64,000 nucleotides of DNA from Candidatus Saccharimonadales bacterium (GCA_046350615.1 JAXMAA010000003.1:9695-73694); one strand, 5' to 3'; positions 8,528-30,775 are shown, numbered from the stretch's first letter. Notes: generated by a model not told the origin, from the letters alone. Numbers and translations are program-made.

Positions 8528-9595
8528 CTATTTTACCAGTACGGCCCCAGATATCGCATTAGAGGCTCCGTGAACGATGAGTTCTGGCCGAGCAACATAT
8601 GCACCGCCAATTGCGGTTGCACCTCTGACTGAAGTGCTACCACTGGCTTGCATAAGTACGAATATTCGGAGAATCGCATTATTCCTACCTTCAACATTAT
8701 CTATCTGTATCGGCGGCTCAAACGTTTGTACGAGTGCCCCGCTACCAAGTTCGTGGTACTTTCGTAGGTCTCGTATCAACCTCCCCGATTTAACCGTCCC
8801 GTGTTTACCAAATATTTTCACGTCTTCAGGCCTAAGGTAGACCGTAACCCCCATCGCCATTGAGCCGAGACGAGCTTTAACAACTTGAGATTCTAATTCA
8901 CCATCAGTTTGTAATAAATCGTCGATGCCTTCGGCTACTGAAACGATGCCGAGGCGCTCAAGGTACGATTTATTACCCTCAGTCACGAGGGGTGCTAAGC
9001 ATCTCTTTTGCAGAGTAAGGTATGGCTGGTGCGAATCCTGGTTACCAGGTATTGCCTTAATAATTACACCGCCACTCTCGCCTATGTCTGGAATGCGAAA
9101 GTCACCGGGTGTGTAGTGGTATCTGTCTCGCCCAACTACAATTTCATCATCGGTTCCATGTCTACGTGCCCCAGATATAATCACGTGCGGGACATCACCT
9201 GTGACTTGATCATAGTGGCTTAATACCCTTTCTTTTAAGCCTGAGCCAGTAGCTGCATGCATGAATCGATCAGTCACGCCGATCCCAGAAGGGCTATCTT
9301 CAAGTTCGTATGGTACGATGCGGTCGTCTACGATTGTGCAGTCAACGCGAACAACCAGGGAGTTTACACCATATGTGCGTTCGGCCAATGTTTGTTCTTT
9401 CAAGCCGTCTTGATCGCCATATGCGTCAACTGCAGCAAGCGCAAAGCTCTCTACTTCTTGTCTATGTTTATCTGTAAGCAGGACTGCATCTTCAGAAAAA
9501 GGTGTCTTGAGGCCACTGTATAGGTCAAGCATTGCCGTCTCTGCACCAAGCGCCACCTTGTTCGCACCCAGTTCTCCACTGCTAGTAACTTTCAT
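8528..9595 (-). CDS. hypothetical protein, possible ATP-grasp-type ligase fold
   Basis: Start moved to ATG 9595 (GGAGA 7 nt upstream); VRVDCTIVDDRIVPYELEDSPSG resembles an ATP-grasp Mg-binding strand; otherwise unrecognised. Confidence 0.55.
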   Translation of the reverse strand: MKVTSSGELGANKVALGAETAMLDLYSGLKTPFSEDAVLLTDKHRQEVESFALAAVDAYGDQDGLKEQTLAERTYGVNSLVVRVDCTIVDDRIVPYELEDSPSGIGVTDRFMHAATGSGLKERVLSHYDQVTGDVPHVIISGARRHGTDDEIVVGRDRYHYTPGDFRIPDIGESGGVIIKAIPGNQDSHQPYLTLQKRCLAPLVTEGNKSYLERLGIVSVAEGIDDLLQTDGELESQVVKARLGSMAMGVTVYLRPEDVKIFGKHGTVKSGRLIRDLRKYHELGSGALVQTFEPPIQIDNVEGRNNAILRIFVLMQASGSTSVRGATAIGGAYVARPELIVHGASNAISGAVLVK

Positions 9596-18915: not shown

Positions 18916-19329
18916 TTAATATACTTTACAAATTACTTCACCACCAAGGCGTTGTTTGCTGGCCTCAAAGCCGTTCATAACACCTTTACTGGTAGAGATT
19001 AGAACTAAACCACGACCACTTTTAACTCGAGGGATGTCTTTTACACTCGTATAGAATCTTCGACCTGGCGTGCTTACGCGTACGATTTCGGTAAAGCGCG
19101 GGTTCTGACCCTCTTCGTTAATCGCGATTACAATTTCACTCCGAGGAGTGCCTGCTTCAACGGTTACGTTTTTCAAGAAGCCGTTTTTAGCAAGTTCTTT
19201 TGCGATAGTTTCTTTAATTTTTGAATGCGGTACACGTACCTCGTGCTTGTTGACGCTAGCGGCGTTACGAATACGAGTGAGCATATCTGCAATTGGGTCT
19301 GTTGATACCATACTCATACTCCTTACCAA
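18916..19329 (-). CDS. rpsH: 30S ribosomal protein S8 (true start may be an internal Met at 19317 or 19311)
   Basis: [22 protein letters not shown]. Confidence 0.93.
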
Positions 19330-22792: not shown

Positions 22793-23056
22793 TTACTTAT
22801 CCTTACCACCGTGTTTACGGAACTTGCGGGTTGGACTAAATTCACCAAGTTTATGACCAACCATGTTTTCGCTTACAAATACTGGCACGTGGACCTTGCC
22901 GTTATGTACTGCAATTGTGCGACCAACAAATTCTGGGGCAATCGTGCTGGCACGTGCCCATGTTTTAATAACGGTGCGATCATCTTGACCAAGAGCTGCT
23001 ATTTTTTTAGCGAGCTTCGGGTCTACAAATGGTCCTTTTTTAAGTGATCTAGACAT
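22793..23056 (-). CDS. rpsS: 30S ribosomal protein S19 (start at ATG 23056)
   Basis: [12 protein letters not shown]...; GGGGAGAGG SD directly upstream; ORF-track N-terminal extension rejected. Confidence 0.95.
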
Positions 23057-23384
23057 CCTCTCCCCTTCTATTTGTAAGTTCTGAAATAATTTGTGTATCG
23101 CGAGCATCGTTGAAAAGAGCGTTCAGTATGTCATATTCTTCTTGCCCATGTAAATCGGAACCCGTAGTTAAATCAAAGTCTCTCGATAATTGTCTTCGAT
23201 AACCCATTAGACCTATGCGCTCTAAATCAGTAAGCTCTGGATCTAAAACCGTTAAATCTCCTGATAGTCGTCCTAACGAACGTGCTGTTCTGTGATTAAG
23301 CTGTGCGTTTGTAGCAAACTTAGCTTTTTGGAATTCAGCATCATGCGCTTCTTTGAATGTGGGTATGCGTAAATCAACAGCCAT
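23049..23384 (-). CDS. hypothetical 111-aa protein inserted between rplB and rpsS
   Basis: ATG 1 nt after rplB stop with GAGGAAATAAT SD; its last codons (RRGEDV*) contain the rpsS SD and start; no recognisable motif. Confidence 0.65.
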
Positions 23385-25183: not shown

Positions 25184-25801
25184 TTACGCTCCTACCACCG
25201 TTATGAGGCTCTTTTTTGGGCCAGGGATAGCGCCTTTAAAGCCTATAAGATTATTTTCGAGGTCAATATAGGCAACCTTTAGACCAGAAACAGTCACCTG
25301 TTCGGCGCCCATTTGGCCAGCCATTCGCTTGCCCTTAAAGACTTTTTGCGGATACATAGATCCGATTGAACCAGGCCGACGAACCATTCCGTTACCACCG
25401 TGTGTGCTAGCGCTGGTCGCGAAGTTATTACGCTTTACGTTGCCCGCAAAACCCTTACCTTTGCTGGTGCCAGTTACTTTGACTTTGTCGCCGACTTCGA
25501 AGATTGAAACATCAAAAGAGGAGCCTAGTTTTTGCTCCTCTGAGATTGCCTCAACACGAAATTCTTTAATGATGCGTGGCATGAGATCTTTGCTTGCCTT
25601 CGCTGCATGGCCCTTTACAGACTTGCTCACGTTCTTACCGCCACCGAGTGAAAGCTGAATAGATGTATAGCCATCAGTTTCATCGGTTTTAATTTGGGTA
25701 ATAACGCAAGGACCAGCCTGTACGAGAGTTACAGGAATTAAAACACCATCCTCTTGGAGGATCTGGGTCATACCAATTTTTGTACCCAATAATGCTTTCA
25801 T
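25184..25801 (-). CDS. rplC: 50S ribosomal protein L3
   Basis: LLGTKIGMTQI, TSKGKGFAGNVKR, FKGKRMAGQMG. Confidence 0.95.
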   Translation of the reverse strand: MKALLGTKIGMTQILQEDGVLIPVTLVQAGPCVITQIKTDETDGYTSIQLSLGGGKNVSKSVKGHAAKASKDLMPRIIKEFRVEAISEEQKLGSSFDVSIFEVGDKVKVTGTSKGKGFAGNVKRNNFATSASTHGGNGMVRRPGSIGSMYPQKVFKGKRMAGQMGAEQVTVSGLKVAYIDLENNLIGFKGAIPGPKKSLITVVGA

Positions 25802-25927
25802 GTTGTCCCTTATTTACCATCAGAGCAAACAAAAATCTTGGACTGCTTCTGGTATCTGGTGATTTTTTCAAACCTCAGACCTGGAAACATGCCAAGTGCT
25901 TGATAAATGGCGTAAAATTACCATCAC

Positions 25928-25957
25928 AGCATATCAGATTACACTCAGTAGTGTCAA
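25928..25957 (-). promoter_or_regulatory. candidate promoter driving rplC and downstream genes
   Basis: Minus-strand TTGACA (25952-25957), 18-nt spacer, TATGCT (25928-25933), about 125 nt upstream of rplC ATG. Confidence 0.4.
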
Positions 25958-25972
25958 GTGTTTCTACTAAAA

Positions 25973-26269
25973 CTACCCACCAGCATTGTATGTTGTTTCG
26001 CCATCTCGTGCAGGCCTAAACCTTGCACCACTCGTAGGCACTAGAAATTCGCCGTCTCCTATCGCTTCGTCTCGCGCAATTCTAACATGTTCACGAGTGA
26101 ATGTACCATCGGGCTGAACAGCCATTACGCCATCTGTGATCTCGGTTCCTTTCCAGGGATGGCCTTCATCAGTTGCGCAAAACTCAGCCAAGGCCGCACG
26201 TGCAGCGGGCATGGCACGATGGAAATTATTCCGCATTTTTGATATTCTTTCATGATTTGTCGTGTTCAT
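25973..26269 (-). CDS. hypothetical protein (98 aa from internal ATG; ORF track 118 aa)
   Basis: Longest ORF start would overlap the IS hairpin at 26317-26337; start uncertain; no motif recognised. Confidence 0.45.
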   Translation of the reverse strand: MNTTNHERISKMRNNFHRAMPAARAALAEFCATDEGHPWKGTEITDGVMAVQPDGTFTREHVRIARDEAIGDGEFLVPTSGARFRPARDGETTYNAGG

Positions 26270-26316
26270 AGCTCTATACAATGTAACCGATGTACTCAAA
26301 CGGCGCAAATAAACTT

Positions 26317-26872
26317 CCCACGACCTCACGGTCGGGGTATTGGCTCCTTCAAACTAACCGAAGGTTAGTTTGCCCACTATCCTGTTTGCCTTGGTTTTCT
26401 ATGTAGCTTCGTATAGTGCTTTCGTTTATGCCAACTGTGCTAACAAAGTAGCCTTCCGACCAAATACTGTCTGTGCCCCAGTAGATCTTTTTTAGAAATG
26501 GTAGCTCGGCCTTCATGCCTCTTGCAGTGTTTGCCTTAATTATACCCACCACCTTACCTACGGACCACGTTGGTGGAATGGAAACGAGCATGTGTATGTG
26601 GTCTTTGTCGGTATTGGCAGTTTTGAAGATGACTTCAGGGTAGTGGTCCTGGATTTCTTTGATACGAGATGTAATGAAGGCCTTAACGCCTTCGTTGATG
26701 ATACTGCGTCGGTATTTGGTCGGAAACACTATATGGTAGTCACAGAGGAATACACAGTGGGATTTATGACGATAGAGCGTTGGCATTACCTACTCATGAT
26801 AGTCGGTGCAGGCCGAAAGCGGCAAACAAGCTAGTGGGTTAGGGCATACTGCCCACGACCTTACGGTCGGGG
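26317..26872 (-). mobile_element. IS200/IS605-family element (tnpA only), bounded approximately by two subterminal hairpins
   Basis: CCCACGACC-TCAC-GGTCGGGG (26317-26337) and CCCACGACC-TTAC-GGTCGGGG (26852-26872), same orientation, each followed by GTAYTG, flanking tnpA. Confidence 0.7.
26349..26786 (-). CDS. tnpA: IS200/IS605-family Y1 (HUH) transposase TnpA
   Basis: 145 aa; YHIVFPTKYRR, HIHMLVSIPP (HUH), SEGYFVSTVG (catalytic Tyr region). Confidence 0.85.
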   Translation of the reverse strand: MPTLYRHKSHCVFLCDYHIVFPTKYRRSIINEGVKAFITSRIKEIQDHYPEVIFKTANTDKDHIHMLVSIPPTWSVGKVVGIIKANTARGMKAELPFLKKIYWGTDSIWSEGYFVSTVGINESTIRSYIENQGKQDSGQTNLRLV

Positions 26873-26915
26873 TACTGTGCGCCTGGAATAGAAGACGACA
26901 CACCACGAGCCTGTA

Positions 26916-27200
26916 TTAGACGATAATACCGACTGGGAGATAGAAACTGATGATGGTTGCTACTAAGAGGACTGCTAATTCGATTTTTTTATCAGTTTGA
27001 AAATGCTCATGTGATGCGAACACAAGGCCCAATACCAGTCCCAGGGGCAGACTGAGATGTTCGAACGGGCCAATGTTCACATTCAAAAGCCTGACCCAAA
27101 AGGTGCCAAATATAAAGAATAGGACAAGTTTCAACAAGTATGTGGTGTCAGTCTCGGTATTTTTACGAGCTTTTTTGCTCTTCACTTTTTGTTTTGCCAT
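26916..27200 (-). CDS. small hypothetical membrane protein (basic N-terminus, 3 hydrophobic segments)
   Basis: 94 aa; AAGG SD 6 nt upstream. Confidence 0.5.
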   Translation of the reverse strand: MAKQKVKSKKARKNTETDTTYLLKLVLFFIFGTFWVRLLNVNIGPFEHLSLPLGLVLGLVFASHEHFQTDKKIELAVLLVATIISFYLPVGIIV

Positions 27201-27275
27201 ATCTAACCTTCATTAAAGCATAAACAAAATCAAATAGAAAGCCCGTACTCTGCTGCGGGTCCGTCCTCCAGCAAA

Positions 27276-27533
27276 TTATTTTTTGCCGGTGGCGAGGTTT
27301 TTTACGAAGAGCAATATGAGTGCGCCAGCGACAGCCACAAAGAAGCTGCGGAGGTTGAAGCCGGTAACGCCGACACCATTCAAGAGAAAGCCCGAAATCC
27401 AGCCACCGATAGCCGCGCCGATGATGCCCACGATGATGTTGCCAATCGCTCCTTGCTCTTTGTTATTTCCTGCAATCAGAGATGCAAGCCAGCCTGCGAT
27501 TGCTCCAAAGATTATCCACGATAGTATACCCAC
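27276..27533 (-). CDS. GlsB/YeaQ/YmgE-family (transglycosylase-associated) small membrane protein, GTG start
   Basis: GILSWIIFGAIAGWLA...GNIIVGIIGAAIGGWI glycine-zipper pattern; strong AAGGAGG SD. Confidence 0.75.
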   Translation of the reverse strand: MGILSWIIFGAIAGWLASLIAGNNKEQGAIGNIIVGIIGAAIGGWISGFLLNGVGVTGFNLRSFFVAVAGALILLFVKNLATGKK

Positions 27534-27590
27534 CTGATCCTCCTTATGATTACTTTTCTATTATATCAGCTCGTGTCAACGGGTATGTTT

Positions 27591-27620
27591 TAAAATGAAA
27601 GACCCACTTTCAGGTGGGTC
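27591..27620 (-). terminator. intrinsic terminator 25 nt downstream of rpsJ
   Basis: Minus-strand GACCCAC-CTGAAA-GTGGGTC followed by TTTCATTTTA. Confidence 0.6.
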
Positions 27621-27644
27621 AGTCTAAGCTCTGAGAACTAAGAT

Positions 27645-27968
27645 CTAGTTCATACGAATTTCGGCGTCGCAACCAGCTGGCAGGCTGAGGTTCATCAGGC
27701 TGTCGATAGTTTTTGGAGTTGGCTCTAAAATATCAATCAAGCGCTTGTGAACACGCATTTCAAACTGTTCCATACCTTTTTTGTACACGTGCGGGCTTTT
27801 TACTACTGTAAATTTGCTCTTACGAGTTGGCAAAGGAATTGGCCCGTTGACAGTAGCACCAGTTCTCAGTGCGGTATCAATAATCTGCTTCGCAGATTGG
27901 TCGATAATTTTATGGTCGTATGCCTTTAGGCGAATACGAATTTTTTGCTTTGGTGTAGCGTCAGCCAT
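27645..27968 (-). CDS. rpsJ: 30S ribosomal protein S10 (start at ATG 27968)
   Basis: [21 protein letters not shown]..., [20 protein letters not shown]. Confidence 0.95.
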
Positions 27969-28110: not shown

Positions 28111-28626
28111 CTATAGTCGACTTGCTTCAATAAATAATTCTATATCTCTTGGAGCTGGAAGTCCGATAACCAAACTTCCCAGTTTCTGCGCGTAATCTTG
28201 CGCCCAACTGAGCGCCCTATCGGATCCAAGCGTTTCCGGCGCATTAACTGTTGTAGCGAAGTTTCGACTGGAGTCGCAGAATTTAATAACATGCCCGAGC
28301 GGATGCGACCTTGCTTTGTCGACCTTATTGAGCGTATCAATACCATTTTGCCAAGTAACTGCCTCGACACCATCCGCAACAATAGGTGGAATTCCTAGTC
28401 TTGAAAGATCCTCGCGCCTTAGTACTGTGTCTTCTAGTACATCATGGAGTAAGCACCCTGCCACTACCTCGGGTGCATATCCGAGTAATTGAGCTAGCGA
28501 AGCCACTTCAATAGGATGTTCAATATATGGCAGGTCTCCATACTTTGCTCCGGTTGCCTCATGTGCTTCAAAGGCAATGTCGTAGGCAAGTTTGATCAAA
28601 GGGGTGTCTACATTAAGATTTCTCAT
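28111..28626 (-). CDS. HD-domain protein resembling the SpoT/RelA-type (p)ppGpp hydrolase domain
   Basis: AHEATGAKYGDLPYIEHPIEVA...LLHDVLEDT...VEAVTW follows the H..HD..ED pattern of the HD_4-type hydrolase domain; 171 aa, no synthetase domain. Confidence 0.6.
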   Translation of the reverse strand: MRNLNVDTPLIKLAYDIAFEAHEATGAKYGDLPYIEHPIEVASLAQLLGYAPEVVAGCLLHDVLEDTVLRREDLSRLGIPPIVADGVEAVTWQNGIDTLNKVDKARSHPLGHVIKFCDSSRNFATTVNAPETLGSDRALSWAQDYAQKLGSLVIGLPAPRDIELFIEASRL

Positions 28627-28742: not shown

Positions 28743-29924
28743 TTATTTGGTGATGTTTGTTACAACACCTGCGCCAACTGTTCGGCCACCTTCACGGATT
28801 GCAAAAGTAAGACCTTGATCCATGGCAATTGGGGCGAGCAGTTTCACTTTGAAAGTGATTGTGTCACCTGGCATAACCATTTCTTTGTCGGCTGGAAGTT
28901 CAACCTCACCGGTTACATCAGTTGTACGGAAGTAGAACTGTGGCTTGTAACCTTTGAAGAATGGCGTGTGACGGCCACCCTCTTCTTTGGTAAGGATGTA
29001 CACTTCGGCATCAAATTCAGTGTGAGGTGTAATCGTACCAGGCTTTGCAATAACTTGGCCGCGTTCAATGTCATCGCGCTCAATACCACGAAGCAAGATA
29101 CCAGCGTTATCACCAGCTTGGCCCTGATCAAGAGATTTTTTGAAGGCCTCAATACCAGTTACAACAGACTTCTGGCTGTCTTTCACGCCAACGATTTCAA
29201 CTTCGTCGTTTACTTTTACGATACCAGTCTCAATACGACCAGTAGCAACGGTGCCACGACCTTTAATTGAGAACACATCCTCGATAGGCATCAAGAATGG
29301 CTTATCAAGATCACGAGTTGGTTCTGGTACGTAGTCGTCAAGAGCCTTAACGAGTTCCATAACAGCATCTTCGCTTGCTGGATCACCCTCAAGTGCTTTG
29401 GTGGCAGAGCCCTTGATGATAGGACAGTCACGGTCAAAGCCATTCTTTGCAAGCAGATCACGGATATCTTCTTCAACAAGTTCTACGAGCTCGGCATCAG
29501 CCAAGTCCATCTTGTTCATGAAGACAACAATTTTAGGTACACCAACTTGTTTTGCAAGCAGAACGTGTTCGCGGGTTTGTGGAAGTGGGCCATCATTAGC
29601 ACCAACCACCAAGATAGCGCCGTCGATCTGAGCAGCACCAGTAATCATATTCTTGACGTAGTCGGCGTGACCAGGCATATCAACGTGAGCGTAGTGGCGC
29701 TTTTCGCTTTCATACTCTTGGTGAGAAGTAGCGATGGTGATACCACGTTGCTTTTCTTCTGGTGCGTTGTCGATTTCGTCGTAGTTCTTTGGCTTGTTCA
29801 CATCGCTCGGAAGCTTCTTTGCCAATACGTGCGTAATCGCAGCGGTTAGTGTCGTTTTACCGTGGTCAACGTGGCCCATAGTACCAACGTTCACATGCGG
29901 TTTTGTTCGGTCAAAATCTGCCAT
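28743..29924 (-). CDS. tuf: elongation factor Tu
   Basis: [22 protein letters not shown]; 393 aa. Confidence 0.98.
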
Positions 29925-30103: not shown

Positions 30104-30775
30104 CTACCTTATGGCACTATCTATAAATGCGCCTGCTAGTTCTCGAACATCATTCTCGACGCCTGAAAGCCCATTGTATATCTCATTTACTCCAATAGCG
30201 ATAGATGCTACCGAAAACTCTCCTTTGGGTTGCCTGATTAGCTCATCATACCCGAAACGCGTGCTGTTTGGCCCGATCAGGGGAACCACGAGCTCACGGC
30301 CTTCAAGAGTGACTGGGGCGGCCTTTCTCGGCGAGATTTTATGTGGCTTCCATCCATGAACTAAGCGAAAGGAGGCACCTAAATGATGGCCTAAAGGGTT
30401 GCTTTTTTCGTCACCAAAGAGGGTTGCGCTAAATGATACGAATGGATCGTCACCAACAATTCCCATGCACTGCAGTTTCGTTTCGGCCGGCAGACTAAAG
30501 TAAGGATTAGTGCCTAAGGTTCTATCGACAAAAACAGCAACCAGAGAGCCTGGCTTTATTTGTGCCAGCCTCCCTAGCCGTTCTGTTGTCTCTGGGTAAA
30601 CTGCAGCAAATTGGCCATTAGTTGCGAGAAATATGAAATCTTTGAGTTCGCACGTGTCACCAGCCGCAAGCCGAGCTGCTGCCGCAGATATCGCCTCTCT
30701 TCGCTCAGTCTCTGCTTTAACCGTAGTCTCTTTGCTTGCTGCTAAAATTTCAGCGATACTTTGAGCTTGTGTCAT
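30104..30775 (-). CDS. hypothetical 223-aa protein inserted between fusA and tuf
   Basis: GGAGA SD 4 nt upstream; TATACT box about 25 nt upstream; no motif recognised. Confidence 0.6.
   Translation of the reverse strand: MTQAQSIAEILAASKETTVKAETERREAISAAAARLAAGDTCELKDFIFLATNGQFAAVYPETTERLGRLAQIKPGSLVAVFVDRTLGTNPYFSLPAETKLQCMGIVGDDPFVSFSATLFGDEKSNPLGHHLGASFRLVHGWKPHKISPRKAAPVTLEGRELVVPLIGPNSTRFGYDELIRQPKGEFSVASIAIGVNEIYNGLSGVENDVRELAGAFIDSAIR

Follow-up and report, generated by a model that had tools for sequence, protein, structure and literature searches.

Between rpsJ and rplC in a Candidatus Saccharimonadales genome: an ancient gap, a conserved structured leader that may respond to uS8, and a recently mobile IS200-type element

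In most bacteria the ribosomal protein gene rpsJ is followed by rplC. Operons that start with either gene have a precedent regulator in uL4 (PMC3616713), and in a survey of ribosomal protein leaders the only entry upstream of rplC is an L4 candidate of Archaeoglobi, with nothing for Saccharibacteria (PMC7247131). The protein uS8 (S8) recognises a helix that is interrupted by seven conserved loop nucleotides, including the invariant A642 of 16S rRNA; the site holds the base triples A595-(A596-U644) and (G597-C643)-U641, and the same element is reused on the spc mRNA (PMC4176348). For species unlike E. coli, a 2024 review calls the control of the spc operon unknown (PMC10931766). Here we analyse the interval between rpsJ and rplC in a 64-kb stretch of DNA (the window) from a Candidatus Saccharimonadales metagenome-assembled genome (MAG), in which all the features described lie on the minus strand. 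The interval measures 1843 bp and contains two genes of small membrane proteins, a small insertion sequence (IS) with a tnpA gene, an open reading frame (ORF) of 98 amino acids (aa), and the promoter and 5' leader of rplC. We conclude with considerable confidence that its organisation has four layers: an ancient split of rpsJ from rplC, a promoter and leader native to the rplC unit, a proposed feedback by S8 on this leader, and a recent arrival of the IS.

The relatives used for comparison were found with a scan for the L3 protein, keeping one genome per species, which gave 80 loci with record titles that are almost all Saccharibacteria or Saccharimonadales. The identity of L3 is 83-89% in the five nearest loci (L011-L015) and 63-77% in the remainder. 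The window proteins were mapped onto these loci, 14 of which have too short an upstream sequence for judging the gap. In this mapping rpsJ and rplC are adjacent in none of the 80 Saccharibacteria loci. The gene rpsJ is found upstream of rplC in 47/80 loci, with a gap of 220-4911 nt (median 1362), and 19/80 loci have no rpsJ in at least 4-6 kb upstream of rplC; even the smallest gap (220 nt, L040) still contains a match to the covariance model of the leader (R1, see below). Because no relative has both genes adjacent, the split is ancient: rpsJ lies outside the rplC operon in every relative examined, and the gap of the window is ordinary for the lineage. The canonical S10 arrangement, with rplC directly after rpsJ in one unit, is not found here; rpsJ appears to be the final gene of its own unit, preceded by tuf and an ORF with an HD domain, and is followed by a terminator-like site. 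This site has the hairpin GACCCAC-CTGAAA-GTGGGTC, with a stem of 7 bp (5 GC pairs) in the computed fold, and terminator-like sites after rpsJ are present in the relatives L015 and L011 too.

Looking at the genes of the gap separately, homologues of the 94-aa membrane protein (TM94) are found in 34/80 loci by tblastn; 47 loci have both rpsJ and rplC, and in 31 of them TM94 stands between the two. TM94 has no assigned family, its single weak Pfam match being 2TM (E 0.082). The GlsB/YeaQ-type protein (YeaQ) is found by tblastn in the same position in only two of the 80 loci, L015 (65% identity) and L014 (48%). The gene order is rpsJ-YeaQ-TM94-rplC in L015 and L014, and rpsJ-TM94-rplC in L011 and L013. 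The tnpA and the 98-aa ORF are present at this locus in 0/80 relatives. In the alignment of the spacer between TM94 and rplC the homology picks up again from the promoter onwards, ~170 nt ahead of rplC, and the DNA specific to the window amounts to ~0.92 kb, that is, the IS and ~340 nt containing the 98-aa ORF. No anomaly of GC content marks a foreign insert, the values being 0.42-0.50 over the gap, as in the flanks. The spacer before rplC tolerates insertions and collects small lineage-specific genes: TM94 is widespread there, and YeaQ is shared by the two loci of closest arrangement. Saccharibacteria normally have rpsJ and rplC apart, and such a gap is not to be taken as a disruption.

These comparisons change an earlier, sequence-only reading of the same DNA, which had proposed that an insert of 1.8 kb with five genes recently split the S10 operon. 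The features which it placed here (rpsJ, rplC, the hairpins, tnpA, the ORFs, the promoter and the terminator-like site) are all confirmed in their places; what does not stand is their common origin as an insert, only the IS and the 98-aa ORF being specific to the window, and the split itself, which neither the IS nor a 1.8-kb insert has caused. An arrangement shared by the relatives had been named there as the sign of an ancient, fixed state, and for the split this is the state found. The alignment of the junction with relatives, which it had proposed for sorting the inserted genes, places TM94 among the lineage-conserved ones and YeaQ with the two closest loci. Its intrinsic terminator after rpsJ survives as a terminator-like site, one that is not peculiar to the window. 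The promoter, proposed there to re-start transcription into rplC, proves to be old, the -35 and -10 elements and a leader of ~120 nt being kept upstream of rplC throughout the lineage.

This promoter scores higher than any other match in the region (10/12, with the TG extension) and aligns with TTGACA...TAYRMT in the nearest relatives; the strict form TTGAC-N17-20-TAnnnT is found upstream of rplC in 50/79 loci. By its sequence the rplC promoter appears native and heads a conserved structured leader. The shared architecture consists, from 5' to 3', of the promoter, a small 5' hairpin, the helix P1, a (G)AAU loop, P2 (3-4 bp), an unpaired A and P3. P1 is CTTGGYR/YRCCAAG, or CTAGAY/RTCTAG in one clade, and the base of P3 is GGUC/GA-(AA or UA)-CC with an apex of 4 to ~60 nt. 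The 3' strand of P1 runs directly into a U-run; the Shine-Dalgarno sequence comes ~20 nt later and the AUG after it. In the window P1 is formed by 25892-25896 paired with 25837-25841, the U-run is at 25831-25835 and the Shine-Dalgarno sequence at 25806-25811; the internal loop has A25882 G25881 G25880 U25879 C25878 opposite G25856 A25855 U25854 A25853 C25852 C25851.

The leaders were aligned with MAFFT in anchored segments, and the resulting alignment of 51 sequences is the seed of R1. RNAalifold recovers P2 and P3 from it, and with the full structure 87.0% is paired, against 31-51% in slid controls. Compensatory changes are found in 15/18 pairs, and the covariation score is reached by 0/500 shuffles. 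R1 matches all 81 sources (the window and the 80 loci, 30 of which are not in the seed), once each save for an assembly duplicate in L031; all matches lie on the sense strand ahead of rplC, and none is found elsewhere in 0.95 Mb. In the R1-based alignment 87.7% of the cells are paired, against 30-49% when the partners are slid, and folds of single sequences reproduce P1-P3. Two further pairings, one that would sequester the Shine-Dalgarno sequence (CTCCCAC/GTGGGAG) and one of the 5' hairpin with the tail, show no covariation by eye. Rfam 15 gives no match to the leader even under permissive settings (scans of the window and of L058, with chance-level matches only), and its scan of the window yields three tRNAs and nothing else. 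In the literature searched we found no report of an rplC leader in Saccharibacteria. The leader is apparently an undescribed conserved RNA, and it could be used as an annotation marker of the operon start in these genomes.

The invariant part of the leader resembles the S8 site in helix 21 of 16S rRNA. When R1 is run unfiltered over E. coli rrnB, a weak alignment appears on 16S 591-649 (helix 21); the case for mimicry rests on the position-by-position identity of the invariant nucleotides, compared with E. coli 16S rRNA after checking the numbering. Based on 79 distinct leaders, the unpaired A (64/79) corresponds to A595, a covarying R-Y pair (G-C in 57 and A-U in 21) to A596-U644, a G-C pair (79/79) to G597-C643, a U-A pair (76/79) to U598-A640, a C-G pair (79/79) to C599-G639, a W (A in 52, U in 27) to position 641, and an A (79/79) to A642. 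In the window the equivalent of A642 is 25853 and that of G597-C643 is 25880/25852. The leader has the complete sequence pattern of the site (A595; A596-U644; G597-C643; U598; A640; N641; A642). A core descriptor derived from the leader finds one site in the 13 kb of E. coli rrnB (both strands), at 16S 595-644, and 20 sites in 1.9 Mb of Saccharibacteria DNA, which by count, not by position, are taken as essentially the 19 leaders that pass it; the background outside leaders is ~1 per 1.9 Mb. The descriptor under-calls, its strict form being found in 19/79 leaders and its relaxed form in 55/79, and the leader of the window fails the strict form owing to a C·A beside the loop. As for the protein, rpsH is located ~6.5 kb downstream of the leader on the same strand and in the same tightly packed cluster, which runs from rplC past rpsH to secY and in which the genes from rplC to rpsH overlap or stand 1-23 nt apart. 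The uS8 of the window can be aligned with S8 proteins of solved structure, and the ISTSKG motif, which has a role in RNA contact (PMC4176348), is conserved in it.

S8 feedback is proposed here because the leader loop matches the helix-21 site and rpsH belongs to the same cluster. We lean, by a small degree, towards the leader being a uS8-responsive regulator, probably an attenuator made of P1 and the U-run, that would control the fused S10-spc(-alpha) cluster from its 5' end. Several observations weigh against this. The R1 match to helix 21 falls short of significance (5.9 bits, E 2.8); the site in the leader lies ~30 nt upstream of the rplC AUG (the loop at 50-80 nt, the 3' end of P1 at ~35 nt) and has no overlap with the start codon; the pair beside the loop is C·A in the clade of the window; and a pairing of the U-run with sequence upstream of P1 is also possible, making a simple terminator less convincing. 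In the proposed mechanism, transcription of the rplC unit would start near 25921 and the rpsJ unit would end at the terminator-like hairpin. When uS8, the product of rpsH, is in excess, it would attach to the leader and make P1-P3 more stable, and expression would be lowered by premature termination at the U-run or by a block of initiation. A lowering on uS8 binding is expected because the U-run is directly after P1 and so shortly before the Shine-Dalgarno sequence. Whether the read-out would be termination or translational occlusion is the least certain step.

A different ligand, uL4 or uL3, for a leader that is otherwise real is unlikely, and it is the first alternative to be weighed. The genes rplC and rplD are the first two downstream, a hairpin with a U-run resembles an L4 attenuator, and uL4 has both its precedent in operons of this kind (PMC3616713) and the Archaeoglobi candidate upstream of rplC (PMC7247131). 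The invariant loop, on the other hand, agrees position for position with the S8 site of helix 21, whereas R1 on E. coli 23S rRNA finds nothing structured, only a 10-nt match to the tail; also, the leader is unlike the S10 leader of E. coli and has no Rfam match. It is less likely still that the leader has another role altogether (riboswitch, RNase processing site or constitutive stabiliser) and resembles helix 21 by coincidence. P1 and the GAAU loop do lack a counterpart in helix 21, and no clear expression platform is seen, but the motif is found only upstream of the ribosomal protein operon that encodes S8, and it shares 11 identical core positions with a known protein site, the descriptor having a chance rate of ~1 per 1.9 Mb. 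The leader is the more useful result of the interval. If S8 binds it, there is for one phylum an answer to how a large ribosomal protein cluster is fed back outside E. coli-like bacteria, as well as a new example of convergent rRNA mimicry. If true, this would be, according to the literature searched, the first S8 feedback site outside Gammaproteobacteria, with the mimicry of helix 21 independently re-invented in a new place. The coordinates of all features are given in Table 1.

Table 1. Features of the rpsJ-rplC interval and of the genes around it in the 64-kb window, listed in the direction of transcription.
Feature	Position	Strand	Remarks
tuf	28743-29924	-	upstream of the HD-domain ORF
rpsJ (uS10)	27645-27968	-	PF00338, E 6e-35; 92-96% identity to rpsJ of the nearest relatives
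Terminator-like hairpin and U-run, directly 3' of rpsJ	27591-27620	-	hairpin 27620-27601, then TTTCATTTTA
Gene of GlsB/YeaQ-type small membrane protein	27276-27533	-	PF04226, 39.7 bits, E 5.5e-10
Gene of 94-aa membrane protein (TM94)	26916-27200	-	tblastn homologues in relatives
CTATT, inferred target and left cleavage sequence of the IS	26887-26891	-	IS inserted 3' of CTATT
Minimal IS200-group element (by sequence), tnpA only, ~579 bp	26308-26886	-	ends ambiguous by 1 nt
Left-end subterminal imperfect hairpin	26852-26872	-	CCCCGACC-GTAA-GGTCG(T)GGG on the tnpA sense strand
tnpA, Y1 HUH transposase, 145 aa	26349-26786	-	PF01797, 110.5 bits; NF033573, 124.8 bits
Right-end subterminal hairpin	26317-26337	-	element stops 9 nt further on, at ...AAGTTTATT
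98-aa ORF, no family assignment	25973-26269	-	118 aa if extended to 26329 (GTG start within the IS)
Predicted sigma-70-type promoter of the rplC-led operon	25928-25957	-	TTGACA(25957)-18-TATGCT(25928), TG extension
Structured 5' leader of rplC	25802-25921	-	covariance model R1: 25814-25904, 49.4 bits, E 7e-9
rplC (uL3), first gene of the fused S10-spc cluster	25184-25801	-	PF00297; 83-89% identity to the nearest relatives
rpsH (uS8)	18916-19329	-	PF00410, E 8e-39

Turning to the IS, its TnpA aligns to the TnpA of IS608 (PDB 2A6M, E 4e-18), and both the HUH motif (DHIHMLV) and the helix of the catalytic tyrosine (YIENQ) are conserved. The 21-nt hairpin is found exactly twice in the 64 kb (26317 and 26852), in the same orientation, with 0 expected by chance and no further match in the window when up to 3 mismatches are allowed. 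Both copies are inside a direct repeat of 30 nt with 90% identity, and each folds with one extrahelical T; the left one has 8 bp, and its guide tetranucleotide is AGTA. The left boundary reads (T)CTATT followed by CCAGGCGC..., and CTATT is present in 5/5 distinct left flanks (the window, L001, L002, L006 and L010). The right boundary is ...AAGTTTATT, beyond which the flanks are unrelated. Neither terminal inverted repeats (ends CCAGGCGC and AAGTTTATT compared) nor a target-site duplication (flanks compared) is found. With a Y1 HUH protein, subterminal palindromes on the same strand, insertion 3' of CTATT and multiple identical copies, the IS has the features of the IS200/IS605 family, and its sequence assigns it to the IS200 group; the sequence-only reading had recognised tnpA and its two hairpins as such an element, and an intact, bona fide one it is. 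No empty site (...TCTTCTATT joined to (T)GCGCCGTTTGAG) was recovered, however, and each cleavage position carries an ambiguity of 1 nt. By the paradigm of IS608, the IS would move as single-stranded DNA (peel-and-paste), with the tetranucleotides 5' of the hairpins guiding cleavage. The + strand of the window is C-rich, and the sense strand of tnpA, which bears the hairpins, would then be the lagging-strand template; a strand bias of the IS200/IS605 family is known, and this placement agrees with it.

Two further structures are seen within the IS. Just inside the left end, 26821-26838 is 89% complementary over 18 nt to 26373-26390 at the 3' end of tnpA. Such complementarity between the left and right ends is retained with other sequences in L110, L146 and L191 (CCCCGCATCGT, CCCTGCATCA and CCCTGCATCTTTT); the 18-nt pairing could join the ends of the IS in single-stranded DNA, or loop the mRNA closed. 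Also, the final codons and the stop of tnpA are part of a perfect 10-bp hairpin (26335-26375, minus strand; CAAACTAACC-TTCG-GGTTAGTTTG) right before the right-end hairpin, and relatives of the IS retain a shorter form of it, CAAAC-GAAG-TTTG.

The further copies that the sequence-only reading had suggested looking for do exist. Thirteen contigs of independent assemblies encode the exact TnpA protein, and the DNA is 100% identical over 579-585 bp in at least nine contigs (alignment of 10 sequences) with at least six different flanks, the sequence outside the span of the IS diverging wholly between contigs. In several assemblies the IS is a free-standing contig of 584-585 bp, the form in which collapsed repeats assemble. 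At least four further GenBank accessions of the exact protein belong to the same number series as the MAG; from these we infer that the IS is multi-copy in this genome, the copy number resting on the accession numbers. The IS is recently mobile. One JGI contig (L003:1-110) has the exact tnpA and right end with a completely different left side that lacks the left-end hairpin, and represents a truncated copy or else a chimera made in assembly.

The wider family of the TnpA has 967 members (E < 1e-10), mostly on short metagenome contigs, and the few named ones are Saccharimonadales or Patescibacteria. A metagenome scan with the 21-nt hairpin finds at least 120 contigs, and the right end of the family (at least 100 metagenome copies) consists of the hairpin and AAGTTTAT, after which the sequence is variable. 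Among relatives of the IS the four bases that precede the hairpin change in step with the presumed 4-nt cleavage sequence: AAAA/AATA goes with TTAT, AATG with TTAC, GAAA/GATA with TCAT, and GATT/AATT with TCAA. By this rule the left guide AGTA of the window would predict CTAT, matching the observed left flank. Some hairpin copies (e.g. L113, L122:4480, L127:8266, L188, L199, L207) are left-end-like on one side and have the right-end-like AAGTTTAT on the other without a tnpA between, and look like solo or miniature derivatives of the IS. In L179 there are two right-end-like hairpins 66 nt apart, and in L199 the hairpin is directly 3' of a 16S rRNA gene. The value of the IS itself is modest: it is a very small autonomous element with clean ends, active in a reduced, host-dependent lineage, and its relatives supply natural covariation of guides and cleavage sites.

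The 98-aa ORF (NCBI MFO0971524.1, locus tag U0520_04245) is outside the IS, because other identical copies of the IS have unrelated right flanks. A word-indexed search of 5.8 billion proteins finds the protein itself alone, and full HMMER adds one relative of 113 aa with 43% identity over 86 residues, which makes it a near-ORFan. That relative (L211:4001-4342) is located among small ORFs and adjoins an HD/HD_assoc gene and a gene for which Pfam gives a faint TrwB-like match, a neighbourhood that hints at a mobile-element origin of the family. No match to the 98-aa ORF is found in Pfam, NCBIfam, PHROG or PADLOC, and it is best described as a rare, strain-specific accessory gene with no assigned function. 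Look-ups of exact proteins (the 94-aa protein, the 98-aa ORF, rpsJ and P0001) returned no record, and no contig of a sister strain was obtained. It is very unlikely that this ORF is cargo or a remnant carried by the IS in a composite insertion of ~0.92 kb. The two are adjacent and both missing from all relatives, and the 118-aa reading frame begins inside the right end of the IS, yet the 98-aa ORF lies beyond the right-end cleavage site, six other identical copies of the IS have unrelated right flanks straight after TTTATT, and the sole relative of the ORF is found in a different context without the IS.

It is more improbable again that the tnpA is a domesticated RAYT and that the hairpins are REP elements rather than ends of an IS. 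RAYTs are also PF01797-like and flanked by hairpins, and the 21-nt hairpin is found alone in many metagenome contigs; against this, TnpA scores 19.9 bits with the NCBIfam RAYT model NF047646 (cut-off 80) and 124.8 bits with the IS200 model NF033573 (cut-off 55), the hairpins are direct, not inverted, and only two in 64 kb, and the whole 579-bp unit including the gene exists in multiple copies with 100% identity across different contexts. A RAYT/REP system was accordingly rejected on its model score, hairpin orientation and copy pattern. The IS in the window was inserted, as we reconstruct it from its flanks, 3' of CTATT between the membrane protein gene and the promoter, co-oriented with both and beside the near-ORFan gene. 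Because it is placed upstream of the promoter in a spacer that tolerates insertions, the IS interrupts no gene or signal, which corrects the earlier picture of a mobile element sitting within a conserved operon. Hardly credible at all is a recent mobile insertion of ~1.8 kb in which five genes arrived along with the IS, an rpsJ-rplC operon was disrupted and transcription into rplC was restarted by a fortuitous or imported promoter: the IS is indeed real and mobile and the gene order of most bacteria would favour it, but no relative among the 80 has the two genes adjacent, TM94, YeaQ, the terminator-like site and the promoter with the leader are present in relatives without the IS, and the IS covers just 579 bp.

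Other small genes are found at further boundaries of the ribosomal cluster. An ORFan of 111 aa (NCBI U0520_04220; 23049-23384, minus strand) is located between rplB and rpsS, with a gap of 1 nt on one side and an overlap of 8 nt on the other. The rplB-rpsS junction measures 2-12 nt in 73/74 relatives; the sole relative with an insert there, L048 (~8607-8951), has a 113-aa ORF that is packed as tightly and has no similarity to the 111-aa one. No domain is detected in the 111-aa protein, and its structure prediction is unusable (mean predicted local distance difference test, pLDDT, 45). This ORFan is a genuine foreign gene inside a conserved operon. The boundary of tuf and rpsJ contains the ORF mentioned above, a 171-aa HD-domain phosphohydrolase (28111-28626, minus strand) that is similar to the N-terminal part of RelA/SpoT (PF13328; phrog_990), and that of fusA and tuf contains a 223-aa ORF (30104-30775, minus strand) with no family match. 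The gaps at both of these slots vary in size in relatives, and L015 has a 248-aa ORF there.

Comparing the IS with described elements, it shares with IS200 of Salmonella the very small size, the presence of tnpA only, with a Y1 HUH protein of ~145-150 aa, subterminal hairpins instead of inverted repeats, the lack of a target duplication, and a score above the threshold of the NCBIfam IS200 equivalog. It differs in being shorter, ~579 bp against the ~0.7 kb of IS200, in having nearly identical hairpins and the 18-nt complementarity of the left and right ends, and in belonging to a clade that is almost only metagenomic, with named members from Saccharimonadales or Patescibacteria. With IS608 of Helicobacter pylori (TnpA structures 2A6M and 2VJV) it has in common the alignable TnpA with HUH and YIENQ, the imperfect hairpins with an extrahelical T, the insertion 3' of a fixed short sequence and the covariation of guide and cleavage site. 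Unlike IS608, it has no tnpB, and its target is CTAT(T) and not TTAC; the distance from the left cleavage site to the hairpin is 14 nt (19 nt counting CTATT), against 19 nt in IS608. The RAYT/TnpA-REP systems are of the same protein superfamily and use the same logic of hairpin binding, whereas the gene of the window is multi-copy, its hairpins are direct, no cloud of REP elements is found in the window, and the RAYT model fails.

Concerning the leader, the E. coli operator of uS8 (spc mRNA, at the start of rplE) also has a helix with the same asymmetric loop and also has rpsH in the same gene cluster. The E. coli site is internal, at rplE, and overlaps the start codon, whereas the leader site described here is in the 5' untranslated region of rplC, where the fused S10-spc cluster begins; it forms one part of a more extensive P1/P2/P3 fold with a U-run behind it, and attenuation would be possible. 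Operators of the E. coli type are reported to be narrowly gammaproteobacterial (PMC3616713; PMC10931766), and the leader here is Saccharibacterial. The S10 leader of E. coli is similar in being a structured leader before rplC...rpsQ, with a hairpin and a U-run shortly before the first cistron. It precedes rpsJ and binds uL4, whereas the leader of the window comes after rpsJ and before rplC, has no similarity to it in sequence or structure, and has a conserved loop that points to uS8. As for the gene order, rpsJ of cyanobacteria, plastids and archaea is attached to tuf, on the str side, and in Saccharibacteria it is likewise separate from the rplC cluster and downstream of tuf; what differs in Saccharibacteria is the presence of non-ribosomal genes at the fusA/tuf, tuf/rpsJ and rpsJ/rplC boundaries.

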